Below, piece after piece: positions 5,519 through 52,156 of a stretch of 64,000 bases of DNA. This DNA is from a phage: the sequence record PX880100.1, one strand, 5' to 3'. A program made the translations under genes and the position numbers. Under the pieces are notes generated by a model. It saw nothing but the letters and a program-made list of their open reading frames with translations, was not told the origin of the DNA and ran no database searches. The number at the start of each line of letters is the position of its first letter. Within the stretch, counting starts at the first letter, position 1.

Positions 5519-6004
5519 ATGGATCATAGAACAAGTATTGCACAAGCTCTGGTTGACCGTATATCTAAACAGTTGGATGGTTCTCAACCTGACGAATATT
5601 TTAATAACCTATATGGAAACGTTTCTCGTCAAACTTATAAATTTGAGGAAATACGAGAGTTTCCTTATGTGGCAGTTCATATCGGAACTGAAACTGGGCA
5701 GTATCTTCCTTCGGGCCAACAGTGGATGTTTTTAGAACTTCCAATCCTGGTGTACGATAAAGAGAAAACAGACATTCAAGAGCAACTTGAAAAACTCGTA
5801 GCGGATATAAAAACCGTTATTGACACAGGTGGAAATTTAGAATATACTGTTAGTAAACCTAATGGATCGACCTTCCCATGTGAGGCAACTGATATGATCA
5901 TTACATCAGTTAGTACAGATGAGGGTCTACTGGCCCCATATGGTTTAGCAGAAATAAATGTAACAGTGAGGTATCAGCCTCCACGTAGGTCACTTCGCAG
6001 ATAA
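5519..6004 (+). CDS. tail terminator protein (161 aa, putative, T5 p142-like)
   Basis: Immediately upstream of the tail tube gene; length consistent with the T5 tail terminator as I recall it. Confidence 0.4.
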   Translation: MDHRTSIAQALVDRISKQLDGSQPDEYFNNLYGNVSRQTYKFEEIREFPYVAVHIGTETGQYLPSGQQWMFLELPILVYDKEKTDIQEQLEKLVADIKTVIDTGGNLEYTVSKPNGSTFPCEATDMIITSVSTDEGLLAPYGLAEINVTVRYQPPRRSLRR

Positions 6005-9255: not shown

Positions 9256-12200
9256 ATGACTGATAAGCTAATACGAGAATTACTAATAGACGTTAAACAG
9301 AAGGGGGCAACTCGTACTGCAAAGTCTATTGAAAACGTATCTGATGCGTTGGAAAATGCTGCTGCTGCTTCCGAACTGACAAATGAGCAGTTAGGTAAAA
9401 TGCCCAAAACTCTTTATTCCATTGAGAGGGCAGCAGACAGAGCAGCGAAAAGTCTTACTAAAATGCAAGCTAGCAGAGGTATGCTTAGTGTTACTAAATC
9501 TATTAATGATATAGGGGCTAAGTTAGACGACCTCGCTATTACAATGATTGAAGTAGCAGATAAATTAGAAGTCGGATTTGATGGAGTTTCTAGATCTGTT
9601 AAAACAATGGGTAATGATGTTGCAGCTGCAACAGAAAAAGTCCAGGATAGATTATATGATACTAATAGAGCATTAGGGGGCACAGCTAGGGGTTTTAATG
9701 ACACTGCTGGTGCCGCTGGCAGAGCATCTAGAGCTATTGGTAATACTTCTGGTTCAGCACGTGGTGCAACTCGTGATTTTGCGGCAATGGCTAAGATCGG
9801 TGGTAGTCTACCTATTATGTACGCAGCTCTTGCTTCTAACATCTTCGTTTTGCAATCTGCATTTGAACAACTTAAACTAGGTGATCAGCTAAATCGTCTA
9901 GAAAAATTTGGTGTTATAGTAGGTACTCAGACAGGTACTCCTGTTCAGACCCTTGCTAGATCACTACAAGAAGCTGCTGGATATGCTATTTCTTTTGAGG
10001 AAGCAATGAGACAGGCATCTTCAGCATCTGCTTATGGATTTGATGCTGAACAACTTAATAAGTTTGGTTTAGTAGCTCGTCGTGCGGCTGCTGTTCTTGG
10101 CGTTGATATGACTGATGCACTTAACCGTGTAATTAAGGGCGTATCTAAACAAGAAATCGAACTTCTGGATGAACTTGGTGTCACCATCCGTCTTAATGAC
10201 GCATACGCTGATTATGTTAAACAGTTAAATGCTGCAAACACAGGTATAACATATAATGTTAATAGTCTTACCACTTTCCAGAAACAACAAGCATACGCTA
10301 ACGCGGTAATTGCTGAATCTACTAAGCGTTTTGGCTACCTAGATGAAGTACTACGTGCAACTCCATGGGAGCAGTTTGCTGCTAATGCAGATGCTGCACT
10401 AAGAAAAATACAACAAGCTGCTGCTAAGTACTTAGGACCAGTAATTGATGCTATCAACACAGTATTTTATACATCTCAGGCTTCTATATCTGCTGAGGCA
10501 GCTAGGGCCCAAGAAAAAACTAATAGACAGATAGACCCTACCAACGTTGGTGCTGTTGCTTTAAGTTTAGCTGCTTCTGAAGAAGGCTATAATAAAGCTC
10601 TAGATATGTATAAGGAATCTCTTGATAAGCGTAATAAGCTAAAATCTGAGTTCGATAAACGAATGGAACAAGCAGATTTCTATACAAAACTAGCTATACG
10701 TCAAGTTGGTGAAGGTATTCCTGTTGGTATTGCAGCCGCGGGCGCTTCCGAAGCTAATAAAAAGTTTGTAGAAGAAACCGCAGCTATGGGTCTACAAGTA
10801 ACTAGACTCGGTAAGGAAGTAGAGGATTCTACAGAGAACCTCAATGCTTGGAAATCAGCTTATCAGGCTGCTGGAGCTGCTGCTGCAAAAGCTAATCCAG
10901 AGTTTCAGAAACAGATTAATCTACAGAGAGATACTACTGATCCTGATGCTGTATACGATTTTAACTCTACTGTATTAAAAGGACTAACTGAACAACAAAA
11001 AGCATATAATCAGACTAAGAAAACTGCTAGTGACTTAGCTAATGATATACAGAACGTTGCTCAGAATACAGATACTGCTGCTAAGACTAGTGCTACTTTA
11101 GCAGATGCTATAAAAAATATAGAATCACTATCTCAAGGTACTGGTAAAAGTGCAGACGAGTATGTTAAAAATCTCAACCTAGGCTACAACACTCTGTCTG
11201 AAATGAAAACTGCGTCTCAGGCCTTATCTGAGTACGTTAAACTAACTGGTAATGAGACTAAGAACCAGCTAGCAGTTCAACAGAAGATAGCTGATGTATA
11301 TAACCAAACTAAGGATAAAGAAAAAGCACAGGAAGCCGGTAGACGTTTAGAACTCCAACAGTTAGAAGAACAAGAAGCTGCTTTACGCCGTGTTCTTCAA
11401 ACAAACCAGGGAAATAAAGCTGTTGAGAAAGAAATTGAAAAAATTCAGCTAGAGAAACTTAAACTTACCAACCAGGGTATGGAAGCTCAGAAGAAGGTTA
11501 AGGATTACACAGATAAAATTCTGGGTGTAGATCGTGAGATAGCCCTTCTAAACGACCGTACTATGACTGCTACTCAGTATAGGTTAGCTCAGTTAAAACT
11601 AGAACTAACTATAGAGAAGGAGAAATACGAGTGGTATTCAAGACAAACTGACAAACAGAAAGAGGCTGAACAGTCTAGACGTGCCCAAGCACAAATAAGT
11701 AGAGAACTGTGGGAAGCAGAGAAACAAGCTACTGCCTCACATGTATCAGCTCTCATGGATGCCTTAGAGGTTAGCCAAACGCAGAGAAATGTCACTGGTC
11801 AGTCCCAGATTCTCACTGAAAGGTTATCCATTCTGCAACAACAGCTGGAGCTGTCTAAGGGCAATACTGAGGAAGAAATTAAATATCGTAATGAGATTTA
11901 TAAAACTTCAGCAGCCTTAGAACAGCTTAGGAAACAGAGAGATAGCCAGATGCAGCAACAGGTAGGGTCTTCTGTAGGTGCTGTATATACTCCTACAACT
12001 GGACTATCTGGAGAAGATAAAGATTTTGCTGATATGCAAAATAGAATGGCTTCTTATGACCAGGCAATCTCTAAATTATCTGAGCTAAACTCTGAAGCAA
12101 CCGCTGTGGCTCAAAGTATGGGTAATCTAACTAATGCCATGATCCAGTTCTCCCAGGGATCTTTAGATACTACTTCCCTGATTGCTTCTGGTATGCAGAC

Positions 12201-12936
12201 TGTGGCCTCTATGATTCAATATAGTACTAGTCAACAGGTTAGTGCAATTGATCAGGCTATTGCAGCAGAGCAGAAACGTGATGGTAAATCAGAAGCATCT
12301 AAAGCTAAGTTGAAGAAGTTGGAAGCTGAAAAGCTGAAAATTCAACAGGACGCAGCTAAGAAGCAGATTATCATCCAAACTGCAGTAGCAGTAATGCAAG
12401 CGGCAACAGCTGTTCCATACCCATTCTCTATTCCACTAATGGTGGCAGCAGGTTTGGCTGGTGCCTTAGCTCTTGCTCAAGCATCCTCTGCATCGAGTAT
12501 GTCGAGTATTGCTGATTCTGGAGCGGATACAACTAGTTACCTAACCTTAGGAGAGCGTCAGAAGAATATAGATGTGTCTATGTCTGCTAATGCTGGTGAA
12601 TTATCTTATATCCGTGGAGATAAAGGCATAGGCGGTGCTAACTCTTTCGTTCCTCGTGCTGAGGGTGGTAATATGTATCCAGGAGTTAGCTATCAGATGG
12701 GTGAGCATGGTACAGAAGTAGTTACCCCTATGGTTCCTATGAGAGCTACGCCTAATGATGAACTTAAAAACTCATCTAACTCAACTTCAGGAAGACCTAT
12801 CATCCTGAATATTAGTGCTATGGATGCTGCAAGTTTTAGAGAGTTTGCTTCTAGTAATAGTAGTGCTCTAAGAGACGCAGTGGAATTAGCTCTGAACGAG
12901 AATGGTGCAAGCCTGAAAACATTAGGAAATTCTTAA
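9256..12936 (+). CDS. tape measure protein (T5 pb2-like, 1226 aa)
   Basis: Largest ORF of the tail module; long alpha-helical, Ala/Gln/Lys-rich sequence; hydrophobic segment (VPYPFSIPLMVAAGLAGALALAQA) near the C-terminus; T5 pb2 is about 1219 aa. Confidence 0.9.
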   Translation: MTDKLIRELLIDVKQKGATRTAKSIENVSDALENAAAASELTNEQLGKMPKTLYSIERAADRAAKSLTKMQASRGMLSVTKSINDIGAKLDDLAITMIEVADKLEVGFDGVSRSVKTMGNDVAAATEKVQDRLYDTNRALGGTARGFNDTAGAAGRASRAIGNTSGSARGATRDFAAMAKIGGSLPIMYAALASNIFVLQSAFEQLKLGDQLNRLEKFGVIVGTQTGTPVQTLARSLQEAAGYAISFEEAMRQASSASAYGFDAEQLNKFGLVARRAAAVLGVDMTDALNRVIKGVSKQEIELLDELGVTIRLNDAYADYVKQLNAANTGITYNVNSLTTFQKQQAYANAVIAESTKRFGYLDEVLRATPWEQFAANADAALRKIQQAAAKYLGPVIDAINTVFYTSQASISAEAARAQEKTNRQIDPTNVGAVALSLAASEEGYNKALDMYKESLDKRNKLKSEFDKRMEQADFYTKLAIRQVGEGIPVGIAAAGASEANKKFVEETAAMGLQVTRLGKEVEDSTENLNAWKSAYQAAGAAAAKANPEFQKQINLQRDTTDPDAVYDFNSTVLKGLTEQQKAYNQTKKTASDLANDIQNVAQNTDTAAKTSATLADAIKNIESLSQGTGKSADEYVKNLNLGYNTLSEMKTASQALSEYVKLTGNETKNQLAVQQKIADVYNQTKDKEKAQEAGRRLELQQLEEQEAALRRVLQTNQGNKAVEKEIEKIQLEKLKLTNQGMEAQKKVKDYTDKILGVDREIALLNDRTMTATQYRLAQLKLELTIEKEKYEWYSRQTDKQKEAEQSRRAQAQISRELWEAEKQATASHVSALMDALEVSQTQRNVTGQSQILTERLSILQQQLELSKGNTEEEIKYRNEIYKTSAALEQLRKQRDSQMQQQVGSSVGAVYTPTTGLSGEDKDFADMQNRMASYDQAISKLSELNSEATAVAQSMGNLTNAMIQFSQGSLDTTSLIASGMQTVASMIQYSTSQQVSAIDQAIAAEQKRDGKSEASKAKLKKLEAEKLKIQQDAAKKQIIIQTAVAVMQAATAVPYPFSIPLMVAAGLAGALALAQASSASSMSSIADSGADTTSYLTLGERQKNIDVSMSANAGELSYIRGDKGIGGANSFVPRAEGGNMYPGVSYQMGEHGTEVVTPMVPMRATPNDELKNSSNSTSGRPIILNISAMDAASFREFASSNSSALRDAVELALNENGASLKTLGNS

Positions 12937-12943
12937 AACTGGA

Positions 12944-12970
12944 GGAGGACTTTGAGTCCTCCTTTTCTTT
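12944..12970 (+). terminator. rho-independent terminator after the tape measure gene
   Basis: 8-bp stem GGAGGACT/AGTCCTCC with 3-nt loop followed by TTTTCTTT. Confidence 0.7.
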
Positions 12971-12989
12971 ATGGAAAAATAAAAATTTC

Positions 12990-13018
12990 TTGATAAAATT
13001 TTCTAATACTATTATAAT
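12990..13018 (+). promoter_or_regulatory. sigma70-type promoter upstream of the distal tail protein gene
   Basis: TTGATA (12990-12995), 17-bp spacer, TATAAT (13013-13018); downstream RBS AAAGAGGAGAAATTAACT then ATG at 13046. Confidence 0.6.
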
Positions 13019-13045
13019 ATTGTTATTAAAGAGGAGAAATTAACT

Positions 13046-13660
13046 ATGAGATTACCAGACCCATACACGAATCCAGAACTTTCAGGCTTAGGATTCGAAA
13101 GTGTTAACCTGATTGATAATGACCCAGTAATTCGTGATGAGTTACCAAATGGTAAAGTTAACGAAGTTAAAGTATCTGCTCAATACTGGGGTATAAATAT
13201 TTCTTACCCAGAACTGTTTCCAGATGAGTATAGTGTTCTAGATTCTTTTATTTTAGAGTACAAAAGAACTGGGGGCTACATAGATGTCATATTACCACAA
13301 TATGAGGCTTTTAGGGTTAGAGGTAACACTGGCTTAGTAAATATACCTGCTGGACAGAAGGGTTCTAATATAACTATGGATACAAAAGGGCTTCTTACAG
13401 GTACCCCAAAACCGGGGGATCTATTTAAGCTGTCTAACCACCCAAAAGTATATAAAATAACATCATTTAACAAATCAGGTAATACATGGTCTATAAACTT
13501 ATACCCTGATTTATTTATAACTACTACTGGAGCGGAGAAGCCAGTATTTAATGGAATACTATTTAGAACAAAACTCATGAATGGTGATGCTTTTGGATCT
13601 ACACTAAATAATAACGGAACATACTCCAACATCTCATTAAATTTACGGGAAAGTCTATGA
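13046..13660 (+). CDS. distal tail protein (T5 pb9-like, 204 aa)
   Basis: Same length as T5 pb9 and same position directly after the tape measure and before the baseplate hub. Confidence 0.8.
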   Translation: MRLPDPYTNPELSGLGFESVNLIDNDPVIRDELPNGKVNEVKVSAQYWGINISYPELFPDEYSVLDSFILEYKRTGGYIDVILPQYEAFRVRGNTGLVNIPAGQKGSNITMDTKGLLTGTPKPGDLFKLSNHPKVYKITSFNKSGNTWSINLYPDLFITTTGAEKPVFNGILFRTKLMNGDAFGSTLNNNGTYSNISLNLRESL

Positions 13661-16506
13661 AAAAAATATTAGATAGTGCTAGAAACTACTTAAAAAATAA
13701 TAGCAGAATAAAAACTGCTAGTCTAATTTCTCTAGAATTACCCGGCTCTACTGGTACTAGTACTGCTTTTATTTACTTAACTGACTATTTTAGAGATGTA
13801 CTATATAATGGTATTTTGTACCAGGCCGGTAAAGTTAAGTCTATTAGCACACATAAACAAAATAGAGATTTATCTATTGGCAGCCTATCTTTTACTATTA
13901 CAGGTACAGCACAGGATGAAGTACTGAAATTAGTGCAGAATGGTGTATCCTTTTTAGATAGACTAGTATCAATCCACCAAGCAATTATTACAGAGAATGG
14001 TTCTATTTTACCTGTAGACCCAGACACAAATGGCCCTTTATTATACTTTAGAGGGAGAATTACTGGTGGAGGTATTAAGGACAATATCAATACTTCTGGG
14101 GTTGGAACCTCCACAATTACTTGGAATTGTTCTAACCAATTCTATGATTTTGATAGGGTTAATGGTAGATTTACTGATGATGCTTCTCATAGAGGGCTTG
14201 AGGTTGTAGCAGGACAATTAGTTCCCTCTAATGGGGCTAAAAGACTTGAGTACCAGGAAGATTATGGGTTCTTTCATGCCAATAAAAGTATCTCTATTTT
14301 AGCAAAATATCAGGTACAGGAAGAAAGATATAAGCTAAAGTCTAAGAAAAAACTATTTGGTCTATCTAGAAGCTATAGTCTTAAAAAGTACTATGAGACT
14401 GTTACTAAAGAAGTAGATATAGATTTTAACCTTGCTGCTAAGTATATACCAGTAGTTTATGGTGTACAGAAAATACCGGGAATACCTATTTTTGCGGATA
14501 CGGAATTACACAATCCTAATATAGTTTATGTAGTATATGCTTTTGCTGAAGGAGAGATAGACGGTTTTCTTGACTTTTCCTTTGGGGATAATCCCATGAT
14601 TTGTATGGACTCTAATGATAGTTCTGCTAGAACCTGTTTCGGTGTTAAAAAAGTAGCCGGAGACACCATGCAAAGAATAGCATCAGGAATATCTTCTAGT
14701 AGTCCTTCTGTGCACGGTCAGGAATATAAATATAATGATGGTAATGGTGATATAAGGATTTGGACTTATCATGGAAAAGCTGATCAAACGGCTTCTGAAG
14801 TATTAGTAAATATAGCGAAGGAACGTGGGTTCTATCTCCAAAATATGAACGGTAATGGGCCTGAGTACTGGGATGCTAGATATAAACTATTAGATACTGC
14901 ATACGCGGTAGTACGCTTTACTATTAATGAAAATAGAACTGAGATCCCAGAAGTTAGTGCTGAGATTCAGGGTAAGAAGATAAAAATCTATCATTCTGAT
15001 GGTAGAGTAACTGCTAATAGCACTAGTTTAAATGGTATCTGGCAAACACTTGACTACTTAACTTCAGATAGGTATGGCGCAAATATTACTATTGATCAGT
15101 TTCCTCTCCAACAATTAGTACAAGAAGCTGCTATCTTAGATATTATAGATGAATCTTACCAAGTATCCTGGCAGCCATACTGGAGATATGTTGGGTGGAC
15201 TGATCCATTAGCAGAAAATAGACAAATAGTACAAATGAATACTATTCTAGATACATCTGAATCAGTATTTAAAAACGTGCAGGGTTTGCTAGAGTCCTAC
15301 GGTGGGGCTATTAACAACTTATCTGGTCAATATAGGATTACTGTAGAAAAATATTCTAATACTCCATTAGAGATTAATTTTCTGGATACTTATGGTGATT
15401 TAGAGCTATCAGATACTACTGGTAGAAATAAATTCAACTCAGTTCAAGCATCCATAGTAGACCCAGCTCTTAGCTGGAAAACTAACTCTATTACCTTTTA
15501 TAACTCTAAATATAAAGAGCAAGATAAAAATTTAGATAAAAAATTACAATTATCTTTTGCAAATATAACTAACTACTATACTGCTAGAAGTTTTGCAGAC
15601 AGAGAACTTAAGAAATCTAGGTATTCTAGAACCCTCTCATTTTCTTTACCATATCAATTCATTGGTATTGAGCCTAACGATGCTATTGCATTTACATACG
15701 ACCGTTACGGATGGGATAAGAAGTACTTTTTAGTAGATGAAGTCGAAAACTCTAGGGAAGGAAAGATAAATGTTACTCTACAGGAGTATGGGGAAGATGT
15801 ATTTATCAACTCTGATCAAGTAGATAATAGTGGTAATGATATACCAGATATTAGTAACAACGTTCTTCCTCCTAGAGATTTTAAATATACTCCTACACCC
15901 GGTGGTTTAGTTGGTTCTATAGGAAAAAATGGTGAGCTATCTTGGCTTCCAAGCTTAACTAATAACGTAGTTTATTATTCTATCGTGCATTCCGGTCATG
16001 CTGAGCCTTATATTGTGCAGCAACTAGAAACAAATCCCAATGAACGCATGATCCAAGAGATAATTGGAGAGCCAGCAGGTTTAGCAATATTTGAAATAAG
16101 GGCTGTGGATATAAACGGTAGAAGAAGTTCTCCAGTAACATTATCTATAGAACTTAATTCTGCTAAAAACCTAAGCGTAGTATCTAATTTTAGGGTAACT
16201 AATACGGCTTCTGGGGATGTAACTGAGTTTGTAGGCCCAGATGTAAAACTAGCTTGGGATAGGATACCAGAAGAAGATATAATAGAAAGTATATTCTATA
16301 CTCTGGAAATCTATGATTCTCAGAATAGAATGCTAAGAAGTGTACGTATTGAAAATCAGTATACTTATGACTATTTATTAATATATAATAAGGCAGATTT
16401 TGCTCTCCATAACAGCGGTGCTCTAGGGATCAATAGAAAACTATATTTTCGTATTAGAGCAGAAGGAGATGATGGAGAACAGTCTGTGGAGTGGGCATCC
16501 ATTTAA
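13657..16506 (+). CDS. baseplate hub / tail tip protein (T5 pb3-like, 949 aa)
   Basis: Same length as T5 pb3 and conserved gene order (distal tail protein, hub, pb4). Confidence 0.8.
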   Translation: MKKILDSARNYLKNNSRIKTASLISLELPGSTGTSTAFIYLTDYFRDVLYNGILYQAGKVKSISTHKQNRDLSIGSLSFTITGTAQDEVLKLVQNGVSFLDRLVSIHQAIITENGSILPVDPDTNGPLLYFRGRITGGGIKDNINTSGVGTSTITWNCSNQFYDFDRVNGRFTDDASHRGLEVVAGQLVPSNGAKRLEYQEDYGFFHANKSISILAKYQVQEERYKLKSKKKLFGLSRSYSLKKYYETVTKEVDIDFNLAAKYIPVVYGVQKIPGIPIFADTELHNPNIVYVVYAFAEGEIDGFLDFSFGDNPMICMDSNDSSARTCFGVKKVAGDTMQRIASGISSSSPSVHGQEYKYNDGNGDIRIWTYHGKADQTASEVLVNIAKERGFYLQNMNGNGPEYWDARYKLLDTAYAVVRFTINENRTEIPEVSAEIQGKKIKIYHSDGRVTANSTSLNGIWQTLDYLTSDRYGANITIDQFPLQQLVQEAAILDIIDESYQVSWQPYWRYVGWTDPLAENRQIVQMNTILDTSESVFKNVQGLLESYGGAINNLSGQYRITVEKYSNTPLEINFLDTYGDLELSDTTGRNKFNSVQASIVDPALSWKTNSITFYNSKYKEQDKNLDKKLQLSFANITNYYTARSFADRELKKSRYSRTLSFSLPYQFIGIEPNDAIAFTYDRYGWDKKYFLVDEVENSREGKINVTLQEYGEDVFINSDQVDNSGNDIPDISNNVLPPRDFKYTPTPGGLVGSIGKNGELSWLPSLTNNVVYYSIVHSGHAEPYIVQQLETNPNERMIQEIIGEPAGLAIFEIRAVDINGRRSSPVTLSIELNSAKNLSVVSNFRVTNTASGDVTEFVGPDVKLAWDRIPEEDIIESIFYTLEIYDSQNRMLRSVRIENQYTYDYLLIYNKADFALHNSGALGINRKLYFRIRAEGDDGEQSVEWASI

Positions 16507-31099: not shown

Positions 31100-31128
31100 A
31101 TTATACATCATTTATGAGCTGTTGCCAA
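31100..31128 (-). promoter_or_regulatory. sigma70-type promoter (copy 1 of a tandem pair)
   Basis: Minus strand: TTGGCA, 17-bp spacer, TATAAT, then leader ATATACATAAATTTGAGAGAG; the -35 lies in the last codons of the helicase gene. Confidence 0.5.
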
Positions 31129-42488: not shown

Positions 42489-43161
42489 GTTTCAGGGCAG
42501 CCTTAACAGCTTCGTTAATCAACGTAATAATTTCTTCACGAGTCCATTTATACCCCAGAGACTTTACATCAACCCCTAGCTTTTCCAGATGTTTAACAGA
42601 GGCCAACTCGTAATTCATATAATGAACGTTCTGTTGTTTGCCTTCTGATAAAAGCCATACACGGTAGCAACCAACAGGATTATCCATTGCTTTTTTGATT
42701 TCACCGATACACTGGTATCCAGGAACCCAAACAAGCTCACCAACTGCAAATTCTTCTGCTACAGCATCATCAGGAATAATCGGAGGATTCAATGGATCTA
42801 CAATATCATTCAAACGAAGTAGAGCACCGTAGCGTTCCAGAACAGATTTAACCATTGCTACAGAGCGATAATTACGATCGGCAATTTCTTCAAAAGAATC
42901 ACCAGATAAATACTGCTCAATAACGTTGGCTAACTCGATGCCTTCAATAAGTGTGCCACGTTTCTTTTTCTTCATTTCGGCAACTTGAATCTGGCGGTCT
43001 TGCCATTCTTCAATCATCCTTTCCATAGTTGGATTGGATGATACGCCGAGCATTTCACATGCTGCTTTCTTAGTACCACCGTTCTCCAGATGCTCTATAA
43101 CCTTTTTAAAGACTTCATCCGGAATTTCATGGATATGTTTCTTTCTACGAGAACCAGCCAT
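42457..43161 (-). CDS. putative HTH transcriptional regulator (234 aa)
   Basis: Two helix-turn-helix-like segments (TKKAACEMLGVSSNPTMERM; SFEEIADRNYRSVAMVKSVLERYG); ATG at 43161 preceded by RBS GAGAGGAG and the PN25-like promoter. Confidence 0.4.
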   Translation of the reverse strand: MAGSRRKKHIHEIPDEVFKKVIEHLENGGTKKAACEMLGVSSNPTMERMIEEWQDRQIQVAEMKKKKRGTLIEGIELANVIEQYLSGDSFEEIADRNYRSVAMVKSVLERYGALLRLNDIVDPLNPPIIPDDAVAEEFAVGELVWVPGYQCIGEIKKAMDNPVGCYRVWLLSEGKQQNVHYMNYELASVKHLEKLGVDVKSLGYKWTREEIITLINEAVKAALKLDKEKGKRRE

Positions 43162-43192
43162 ATTTAAACTCCTCTCTCAAATTTATGAATCT

Positions 43193-43221
43193 ATTATACA
43201 GAAATTTTTTGCACTATGCAA
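43193..43221 (-). promoter_or_regulatory. strong sigma70 promoter closely resembling the phage T5 PN25 promoter
   Basis: Minus strand reads AAAAATTTATTTGCATAGTGCAAAAAATTTCTGTATAATAGATTCATAAATTTGAGAGAGGAG: TTGCAT, 17-bp spacer, TATAAT, with the PN25-type AT-rich upstream block and CATAAATTTGAGAGAGGAG leader. Confidence 0.7.
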
Positions 43222-43229
43222 ATAAATTT

Positions 43230-43496
43230 TTACGATTCCTTGAGTAAAGAAGCAAGTTCAGCATAGACTTTATCTAACTCAAAGCCGATGCGAAGAGACA
43301 CGTTTGTTTTCCGTTGTTTAAGTAACCACTCGGATATGTTAGGGATGCCAGCTAATCTATGCGGTACCACCCTACATAGCTTTTCCGAAGTGTCGTAAAC
43401 AGGAACTTTACGTTCCTTTACTGGGAACTTCCTTGTTTCCCATTTTTTATTCTTCACTGTCATTTCTAGCACCCAGCTCTGCCATTGCTTCATCAT
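43230..43496 (-). CDS. hypothetical protein (88 aa)
   Basis: Start moved to ATG 43496 (MMKQWQ...) with GGAGA upstream; overlaps the 3' end of the large helicase gene. Confidence 0.3.
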   Translation of the reverse strand: MMKQWQSWVLEMTVKNKKWETRKFPVKERKVPVYDTSEKLCRVVPHRLAGIPNISEWLLKQRKTNVSLRIGFELDKVYAELASLLKES

Positions 43497-51906: not shown

Positions 51907-51935
51907 TATACTCTCCTTCTCTAACTAAGACTACT

Positions 51936-51964
51936 ATTATAACTCATTCGAGGGCGGATGTCAA
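51936..51964 (-). promoter_or_regulatory. perfect-consensus sigma70 promoter for nrdD
   Basis: Minus strand: TTGACA, 17-bp spacer, TATAAT, then RBS GAGAAGGAGAG and ATG at 51906. Confidence 0.65.
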
Positions 51965-52015
51965 CAATATTTTACTATAAAGTTCTGTAACATGATCTGA
52001 GTCAAAAAATTTTAT

Positions 52016-52044
52016 TTGCCAATCTCTATTAAAAATTGTATAAT
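52016..52044 (+). promoter_or_regulatory. sigma70-type promoter (upstream copy of a tandem pair before phoH)
   Basis: TTGCCA, 17-bp spacer, extended -10 TGTATAAT. Confidence 0.45.
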
Positions 52045-52156
52045 CACGCACTCGTGCACGCGATATAAAATGATTATCTAGTATCACACATCTCACGTTA
52101 AAAGCAAGCAAATTTTTTATTTAAATGCAATATCATAGGCTTATTTAAAATTGTAG

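Follow-up and report, generated by a model that had tools for sequence, protein, structure and literature searches.

A terminator, a predicted sigma-70 promoter and a leader identical to vector RBSII upstream of dit in a T5-like phage: a probable orthologue of T5 promoter P-G25

The sequence analyzed here, referred to as the window, is a 64,000-nt stretch of phage DNA (PX880100.1). It belongs to a Tequintavirus that is not T5 itself (approximately 94.6% identity to Shigella phage SSP1 over 20 kb and 94.7% to Salmonella phage SPC35). The locus under study is a gap of 109 nt on the + strand (12937–13045), located between an ORF of 1226 amino acids, the tape measure protein gene, and an ORF of 204 amino acids, dit. 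The product of the latter was matched to PDB entries of the distal tail protein (8hqz_H, 5.5e-132; 7qg9; 4jmq, "Distal tail protein pb9"). The ORF of pb3 overlaps the dit stop codon (ATGA) and, because of this overlap, the two genes are probably co-transcribed and translationally coupled. The features of the locus are collected in Table 1.

Table 1. Features in and around the gap between the tape measure protein gene and dit (positions are those of the window).
Feature	Position	Strand	Basis
Tape measure protein gene (pb2 orthologue)	9256..12936	+	ORF; T5.140 and phage matches annotated likewise
Intrinsic terminator	12941..12975	+	Hairpin 12941–12965 (GGAGGAGGACT-TTG-AGTCCTCCTTT), then TCTTTATGGA (12966–12975)
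A/T-rich block TCTTTATGGAAAAATAAAAATTTC, possible UP-like element	12966..12989	+	Read from sequence
-35 hexamer TTGATA	12990..12995	+	Promoter scan
-10 hexamer TATAAT, spacer 17 nt	13013..13018	+	Promoter scan
Predicted transcription start A, 7 nt past the -10 hexamer	13025	+	Standard sigma-70 geometry, ± 2 nt
27-mer ATTAAAGAGGAGAAATTAACTATGAGA, identical to RBSII + ATG AGA of pQE/pDS vectors	13025..13051	+	Sequence match
Shine-Dalgarno (SD) sequence GAGGAG, 9 nt 5' of ATG	13031..13036	+	Read from sequence
dit, distal tail protein (pb9 orthologue), first gene under the promoter	13046..13660	+	ORF; PDB matches; T5.139
Baseplate hub / pb3 orthologue	13657..16506	+	ORF; T5.138 = tail protein Pb3

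The gap opens with a G+C-rich hairpin followed by a T-run, which is the composition of an intrinsic terminator. In the terminator scan and folding, the hairpin had a free energy of −18.4 kcal/mol (z = −3.3 against shuffles), and the T-run begins within the 3' arm of the stem. The promoter scan placed TTGATA-17-TATAAT downstream of it, with 11 of the 12 consensus positions matched and the highest score of any site between 8 and 18 kb of the window. Both the hexamers and their distance are those of a sigma-70 promoter (TTGACA-like and TATAAT-like, 16–18 nt apart). An earlier note on this DNA had placed this promoter between the tape measure terminator and dit, and its description of the arrangement was borne out (promoter at 12990–13018, hairpin at 12941–12965, dit from 13046). 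At about −50 to −37 from the predicted start lies the A/T tract AAAAATAAAAATTT, invariant in the relatives, and the A/T-rich block 5' of the −35 hexamer may possibly act as a UP-like element. The Rfam scan of 12700–13300 gave sub-threshold chance matches only.

The 27-mer at 13025–13051 covers the entire predicted leader of 21 nt and the first two codons of dit. It occurs once in the window, and the shuffles expect no match to it at three mismatches or fewer. The duplex of the dit SD with the anti-SD was calculated at −9.1 kcal/mol, ranking 7 among the window's 72 ORF starts. Almost no structure is predicted for the initiation region, with a minimum free energy (MFE) of −1.3 kcal/mol compared with −3.5 ± 1.6 kcal/mol for shuffles and a mean of −6.8 kcal/mol over the initiation regions in the window.

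The RefSeq record of T5 (NC_005859) carries a 75-nt feature, "promoter P-G 25" (92013..92087), flanked by T5.139 (distal tail protein) on one side and, on the other, by the terminator that follows T5.140. That terminator, annotated as putative and rho-independent, follows the tail length tape measure protein gene and occupies the same place as the one in the window. From the terminator end to the ATG, the window and T5 differ by a single base (T/C at 13004, in the spacer), and two further differences are both found in the terminator loop. Since the position is that of the annotated T5 feature and the sequence is nearly identical, the site is read as the P-G25 orthologue. The −35 and −10 hexamers, their spacing, the upstream A/T block, the leader, the SD sequence, the first codons and the genomic position are all common to T5 P-G25 and the window, whereas the surrounding genome is that of another Tequintavirus: identity to T5 is 95.4% in the gap, 77% in the 3' end of the tape measure gene and 72% (nucleotide) in both dit and pb3. 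The scan and the T5 annotation thus agree with the suggestion of the earlier note that a strong sigma-70-type promoter lies inside the late tail gene cluster, and the comparison with T5 that it had proposed shows the site conserved, one spacer base apart. The spacer base at 13004 might have an effect on the promoter. On this sequence comparison, the segment combines an orthologue of the long-known T5 promoter P-G25 with the natural dit leader, and as such it is already known. P-G25 is reportedly owed to Gentz and Bujard in 1985.

Two other T5 promoters offer a comparison. The late promoter P-J5, likewise close to the sigma-70 consensus, also belongs to the late region and shows late kinetics. 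Unlike P-G25, it is situated in T5 within the coding sequence of the tail terminator gene (T5.146), with neither a terminator before it nor a strong RBS module. Its orthologue in the window is TTGACA-17-TATACT (11/12) at 5820–5848 on the + strand. PN25, an early promoter that pQE vectors carry as their "T5 promoter", resembles the present site in its sigma-70 type, in the A/T-rich block upstream and in a spacer motif of the AAATTT type, and differs from P-G25 in its locus, strand, early class and initial transcribed sequence. On the − strand of the window, TTGCAT-17-TATAAT followed by AGATTCATAAATTTGAGAGAGGAG (43150–43245) constitutes the PN25 orthologue (about 43170–43240), and AGATTCATAAATTTGAGAGAGGAG is presumably an exact match to PN25. 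The two phage elements from which the pQE expression cassette very probably descends, PN25 and the P-G25 leader, both lie in the window.

Conservation was assessed in 28 T5-like loci from IMG/VR, using a 3.6-kb alignment. All 28 loci, and T5 as well, have the same two hexamers 17 nt apart, and the SD sequence and the ATG are kept in 27/28. The A/T-rich block at 12966–12989 is nearly invariant, with a single T-to-A change in one locus. The exact 27-mer was found in 14/28 loci, while 13 carry variants of one to three bases 5' of the SD sequence; in T5 it is present unchanged. No other part of the alignment is as well conserved as the gap, which is 94–100% identical to the window in 27/28 loci and 81% in the remaining one (L007, which lacks 24 nt, see below). 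For T5 and its closest relatives, the flanking genes are 72–78% identical to the window and the gap still 94–95%. A 91-nt query comprising the promoter and the first dit codons matched 440 phage records.

The same architecture is retained in distant Demerecviridae, where the gap sequence and the G+C-rich hairpin are unrelated to those of the window. Klebsiella (Sugarlandvirus), Proteus (Novosibvirus), Vibrio (Thalassavirus, D308) and Yersinia relatives have a hairpin terminator with its T-run, a promoter matching 10–11 of the 12 consensus positions and an SD sequence in the same gap; Dit is 39–64% identical in Klebsiella Sugarlandvirus, Proteus Novosibvirus, Vibrio Thalassavirus and Vibrio phage D308. 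Because the position is conserved despite the turnover of the sequence, this comparison provides strong evidence that the terminator and the promoter are both functional. Identity to the window changes abruptly in two of the IMG/VR loci: L017 is 77% identical in the 3' end of the tape measure gene and 90% in dit, and L028 is 76% identical in dit and 94% in pb3. These breaks suggest that recombination has joined sequences at, or close to, conserved stretches between genes or at gene boundaries.

According to Klimuk et al. 2020 (PMC7472727), the sigma-70 holoenzyme is used by every T5 gene class, with strong sigma-70 promoters in front of early and late genes alike. In multiplex primer extension performed in T5, the products of PG25 and PJ5 were detected from 30 min after infection and then accumulated, unlike those of the early Ppol and P15A (PMC7472727). 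A transcript 5' end of the kind that the earlier note had suggested looking for has been mapped for PG25 by primer extension, in T5. By analogy, the promoter at 12990–13018 would fire late in this phage. A canonical "early-type" promoter had been called unexpected at this place, and that view does not stand, because strong sigma-70 promoters precede T5 late genes, with PG25 itself being of the sigma-70 type and its transcripts late (PMC7472727). In Cupriavidus necator, Pg25 serves routinely as a constitutive promoter and therefore needs no phage factor. The motif ATATT in the discriminator is said to mark T5 early promoters (Klimuk et al., PMC7472727); here, ATATT is found at 13017–13021, straddling the −10 hexamer and the discriminator, in a register that may differ from theirs.

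How the timing is achieved in T5 is given as unknown (PMC7472727), and the delay of near-consensus sigma-70 promoters until late infection is a recognized puzzle. The conserved gap could carry an extra determinant holding the promoter silent until then, such as a phage late-factor site or a DNA-structure signal, as the conservation extends to the spacer, the discriminator and the upstream block, none of which is read by sigma-70; we consider this rather doubtful. If it were true, the T5 early-to-late switch could profitably be sought in the gap module, which is retained in more than 400 genomes.

The identity between the RBS and start region and the vector element RBSII, to which the earlier note had drawn attention, held on alignment in 27 of 27 bases, while the coordinates had to be shifted by one base (13025–13051, not 13024–13050). 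The 27-mer was scanned against 185,579 species genomes, and the matches were two contigs of a cyanobacterial (Cuspidothrix) draft genome that read GAATTCATTAAAGAGGAGAAATTAACTATGAGAGGATCGCATCACCATCACCATCACGGATCC / CTCGAGAAATCATAAAAAATTTATTTGCTTTGTGAGCGGATAACAATTATAATAGATTCAATTGTGAGCGGATAACAATTTCACACAGAATTCATTAAAGAGGAGAAATTAACTATGAGAGGATCGCATCACCATCACCATCACGGATCC as in pQE-30/-40-type vectors. The RBSII sequence, ATTAAAGAGGAGAAATTAACTATG(AGA), is thus present in the window in full (27/27 against L036 and L037). The contigs (L036, NZ_PGEM01000173.1, 100–250; L037, NZ_PGEM01000014.1, 2940–3090) represent pQE-30/pQE-40-type contamination in Cuspidothrix issatschenkoi CHARLIE-1: both contain RBSII and MRGS-His6 along with the T5 PN25-lacO promoter, and a DHFR-like insert is present in one. 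The EcoRI-RBS-ATG string of pQE80 quoted in two papers spans the first 24 nt of the 27-mer. In PLSDB, queries of 71 and 39 nt mostly matched A/T-rich sequence by chance; one plasmid, of pQE type, was also found and shares 25 nt of the 27-mer. This 4.7-kb plasmid, recorded as "E. coli BE311 plasmid unnamed3" with piglet faeces as its origin (L001, NZ_CP097216.1, 330–560), contains a truncated PN25/lacO and RBSII; its insert looks like an Lpp-OmpA surface-display fusion, and the plasmid appears to be a laboratory vector.

The identity ends at 27 nt, where the vector continues into GGATC and the phage into the codons of dit in frame. RBSII of pDS56/RBSII and pQE consists of the same 27 bases, including the ATG AGA that encodes the "MR" of MRGS-His6. 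It differs from the phage segment in standing behind EcoRI and the T5 PN25/lacO promoter, in having a different transcribed 5' end, and in being followed by GGATCC and His-tag codons instead of dit. RBSII is termed "synthetic" by vendors and in papers. In the literature searched for its origin, no statement deriving RBSII from T5 or PG25 was found, and neither the string of RBSII + GGATC nor a T5 spacer string had a match there. The predicted start A13025 coincides with the first base of the RBSII segment; if this start is right, the vector element equals the complete natural leader plus the Met-Arg of Dit. The P-G25 leader is very probably the source of the vector RBSII, in the direction from phage to vector, a strong inference from the 27/27 identity together with patent text. 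RBSII and the pQE vectors are reportedly due to Bujard et al. in 1987 and Stueber et al. in 1990, and the Roche pDS/RBSII patents, the Gentz thesis of 1984 and Bujard et al. 1987 reportedly describe RBSII as derived from the RBS under PG25.

The match to the hexamers is not decisive by itself, because approximately 2.8 sites with at least 11/12 matches are expected by chance per 64 kb. On both strands of the window, 7 such sites were counted compared with 2.76 ± 1.5 in dinucleotide shuffles, and at the threshold of 9/12 there was no enrichment (27 sites found, 32 expected). The chance expectation and the lack of enrichment at 9/12 would suit non-functional hexamers arising in A/T-rich DNA, with dit expressed by read-through from upstream late promoters. 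Yet such read-through would have to pass the terminator directly upstream, and a coincidence accounts poorly for hexamers and spacing that do not vary in any of the 28 loci, for a gap more conserved than its flanking genes, for distant genera keeping a promoter there despite sequence turnover, and for a T5 orthologue that is annotated and mapped by primer extension; this explanation is extremely improbable. Position, conservation and the published T5 data together lead to the conclusion that the promoter at 12990–13018 is real. A real promoter could still be truly "early-type", firing once the second-step-transfer DNA enters and giving early expression of dit and the baseplate genes. Its near-consensus sequence, the activity of Pg25 without phage factors in other hosts and the ATATT overlapping the −10 hexamer and discriminator point that way, but the T5 PG25 product appears only from 30 min, in parallel with PJ5 and unlike Ppol and P15A, and the genes served encode virion baseplate proteins, so that early firing is regarded as very unlikely.

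That the gap is conserved mainly as a homologous-recombination junction between tail-gene modules would fit the mosaic breakpoints flanking it in L017 and L028. However, in distant genera the functional elements persist while the sequence does not, a pattern that points to selection on function, and recombination may equally result from the conservation; the proposal, although compatible with the P-G25 reading, is considered unlikely. The 27-nt identity might also be attributed to contamination or chimeric assembly with a pQE-type vector, as contamination of this kind does exist in public assemblies. In the window, however, the identity stops exactly at 27 nt, a phage promoter and not lacO/EcoRI lies upstream, and dit continues in frame downstream; moreover, the 27-mer is shared with T5 and half of the independent loci, with variants in 13, and the 91-nt query is matched across the 440 phage records. 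Vector contamination of the window was rejected, being refuted by the independent phage genomes, and its probability is practically nil.

The joint reading of the locus as the P-G25 orthologue with the natural dit leader, including the mechanism and the vector link that follow, is held with high confidence. Transcripts entering from the tape measure gene would be stopped or attenuated at 12941–12975, the terminator possibly being partial in strength. Host sigma-70 RNA polymerase would re-initiate at TTGATA-17-TATAAT, with a start near A13025 and probably aided by the A/T-rich upstream block. The resulting leader of 21 nt, A/U-rich and unstructured, with GAGGAG 9 nt before the ATG, would allow efficient translation of dit, and the overlapping baseplate genes downstream (pb3 and others) would be carried on the same transcript. 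The promoter is expected to fire late in infection, as in T5; both the sigma-70 dependence and the late kinetics are taken from the T5 literature. RBSII of pDS/pQE would then be the dit leader plus ATG AGA, re-synthesized as an EcoRI/BamHI cassette.

The locus can be described as a clean, deeply conserved terminator-promoter-RBS module within a late structural gene cluster. Nothing in this finding is new to specialists, and the observation is correct but ordinary. For annotation and quality control, it means that T5-like genomes share up to 27 nt with an element very common in expression vectors. Genuine phage sequence can therefore be flagged or clipped in vector screens and, conversely, contamination can pass for phage signal. 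In L007 (IMGVR_UViG_2974606035_000001, 1480–1512), exactly the 24 nt ATTAAAGAGGAGAAATTAACTATG corresponding to 13025–13048 of the window are absent, which equals the EcoRI-to-ATG segment of pQE and removes the SD sequence and start codon of dit. Among the top GenBank matches, no record had this deletion; all those listed align in two pieces and so carry the 24 nt. The deletion in L007 looks like a vector-screening or trimming artifact and not biology, because the missing piece is the vector match and dit is presumed essential.

Further promoter-like sites were observed elsewhere in the window. On the − strand at 31100–31128, TTGGCA-17-TATAAT (11/12) is followed by ATAAATTTGAGAGAG, the initial transcribed motif being that of the PN25-type promoter at 43169–43198. 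At 51930–52050, TTGACA-17-TATAAT (12/12, − strand, from 51964) and TTGCCA-17-TATAAT (11/12, + strand, from 52016) are arranged back-to-back, and the pair probably marks a divergent transcription boundary.
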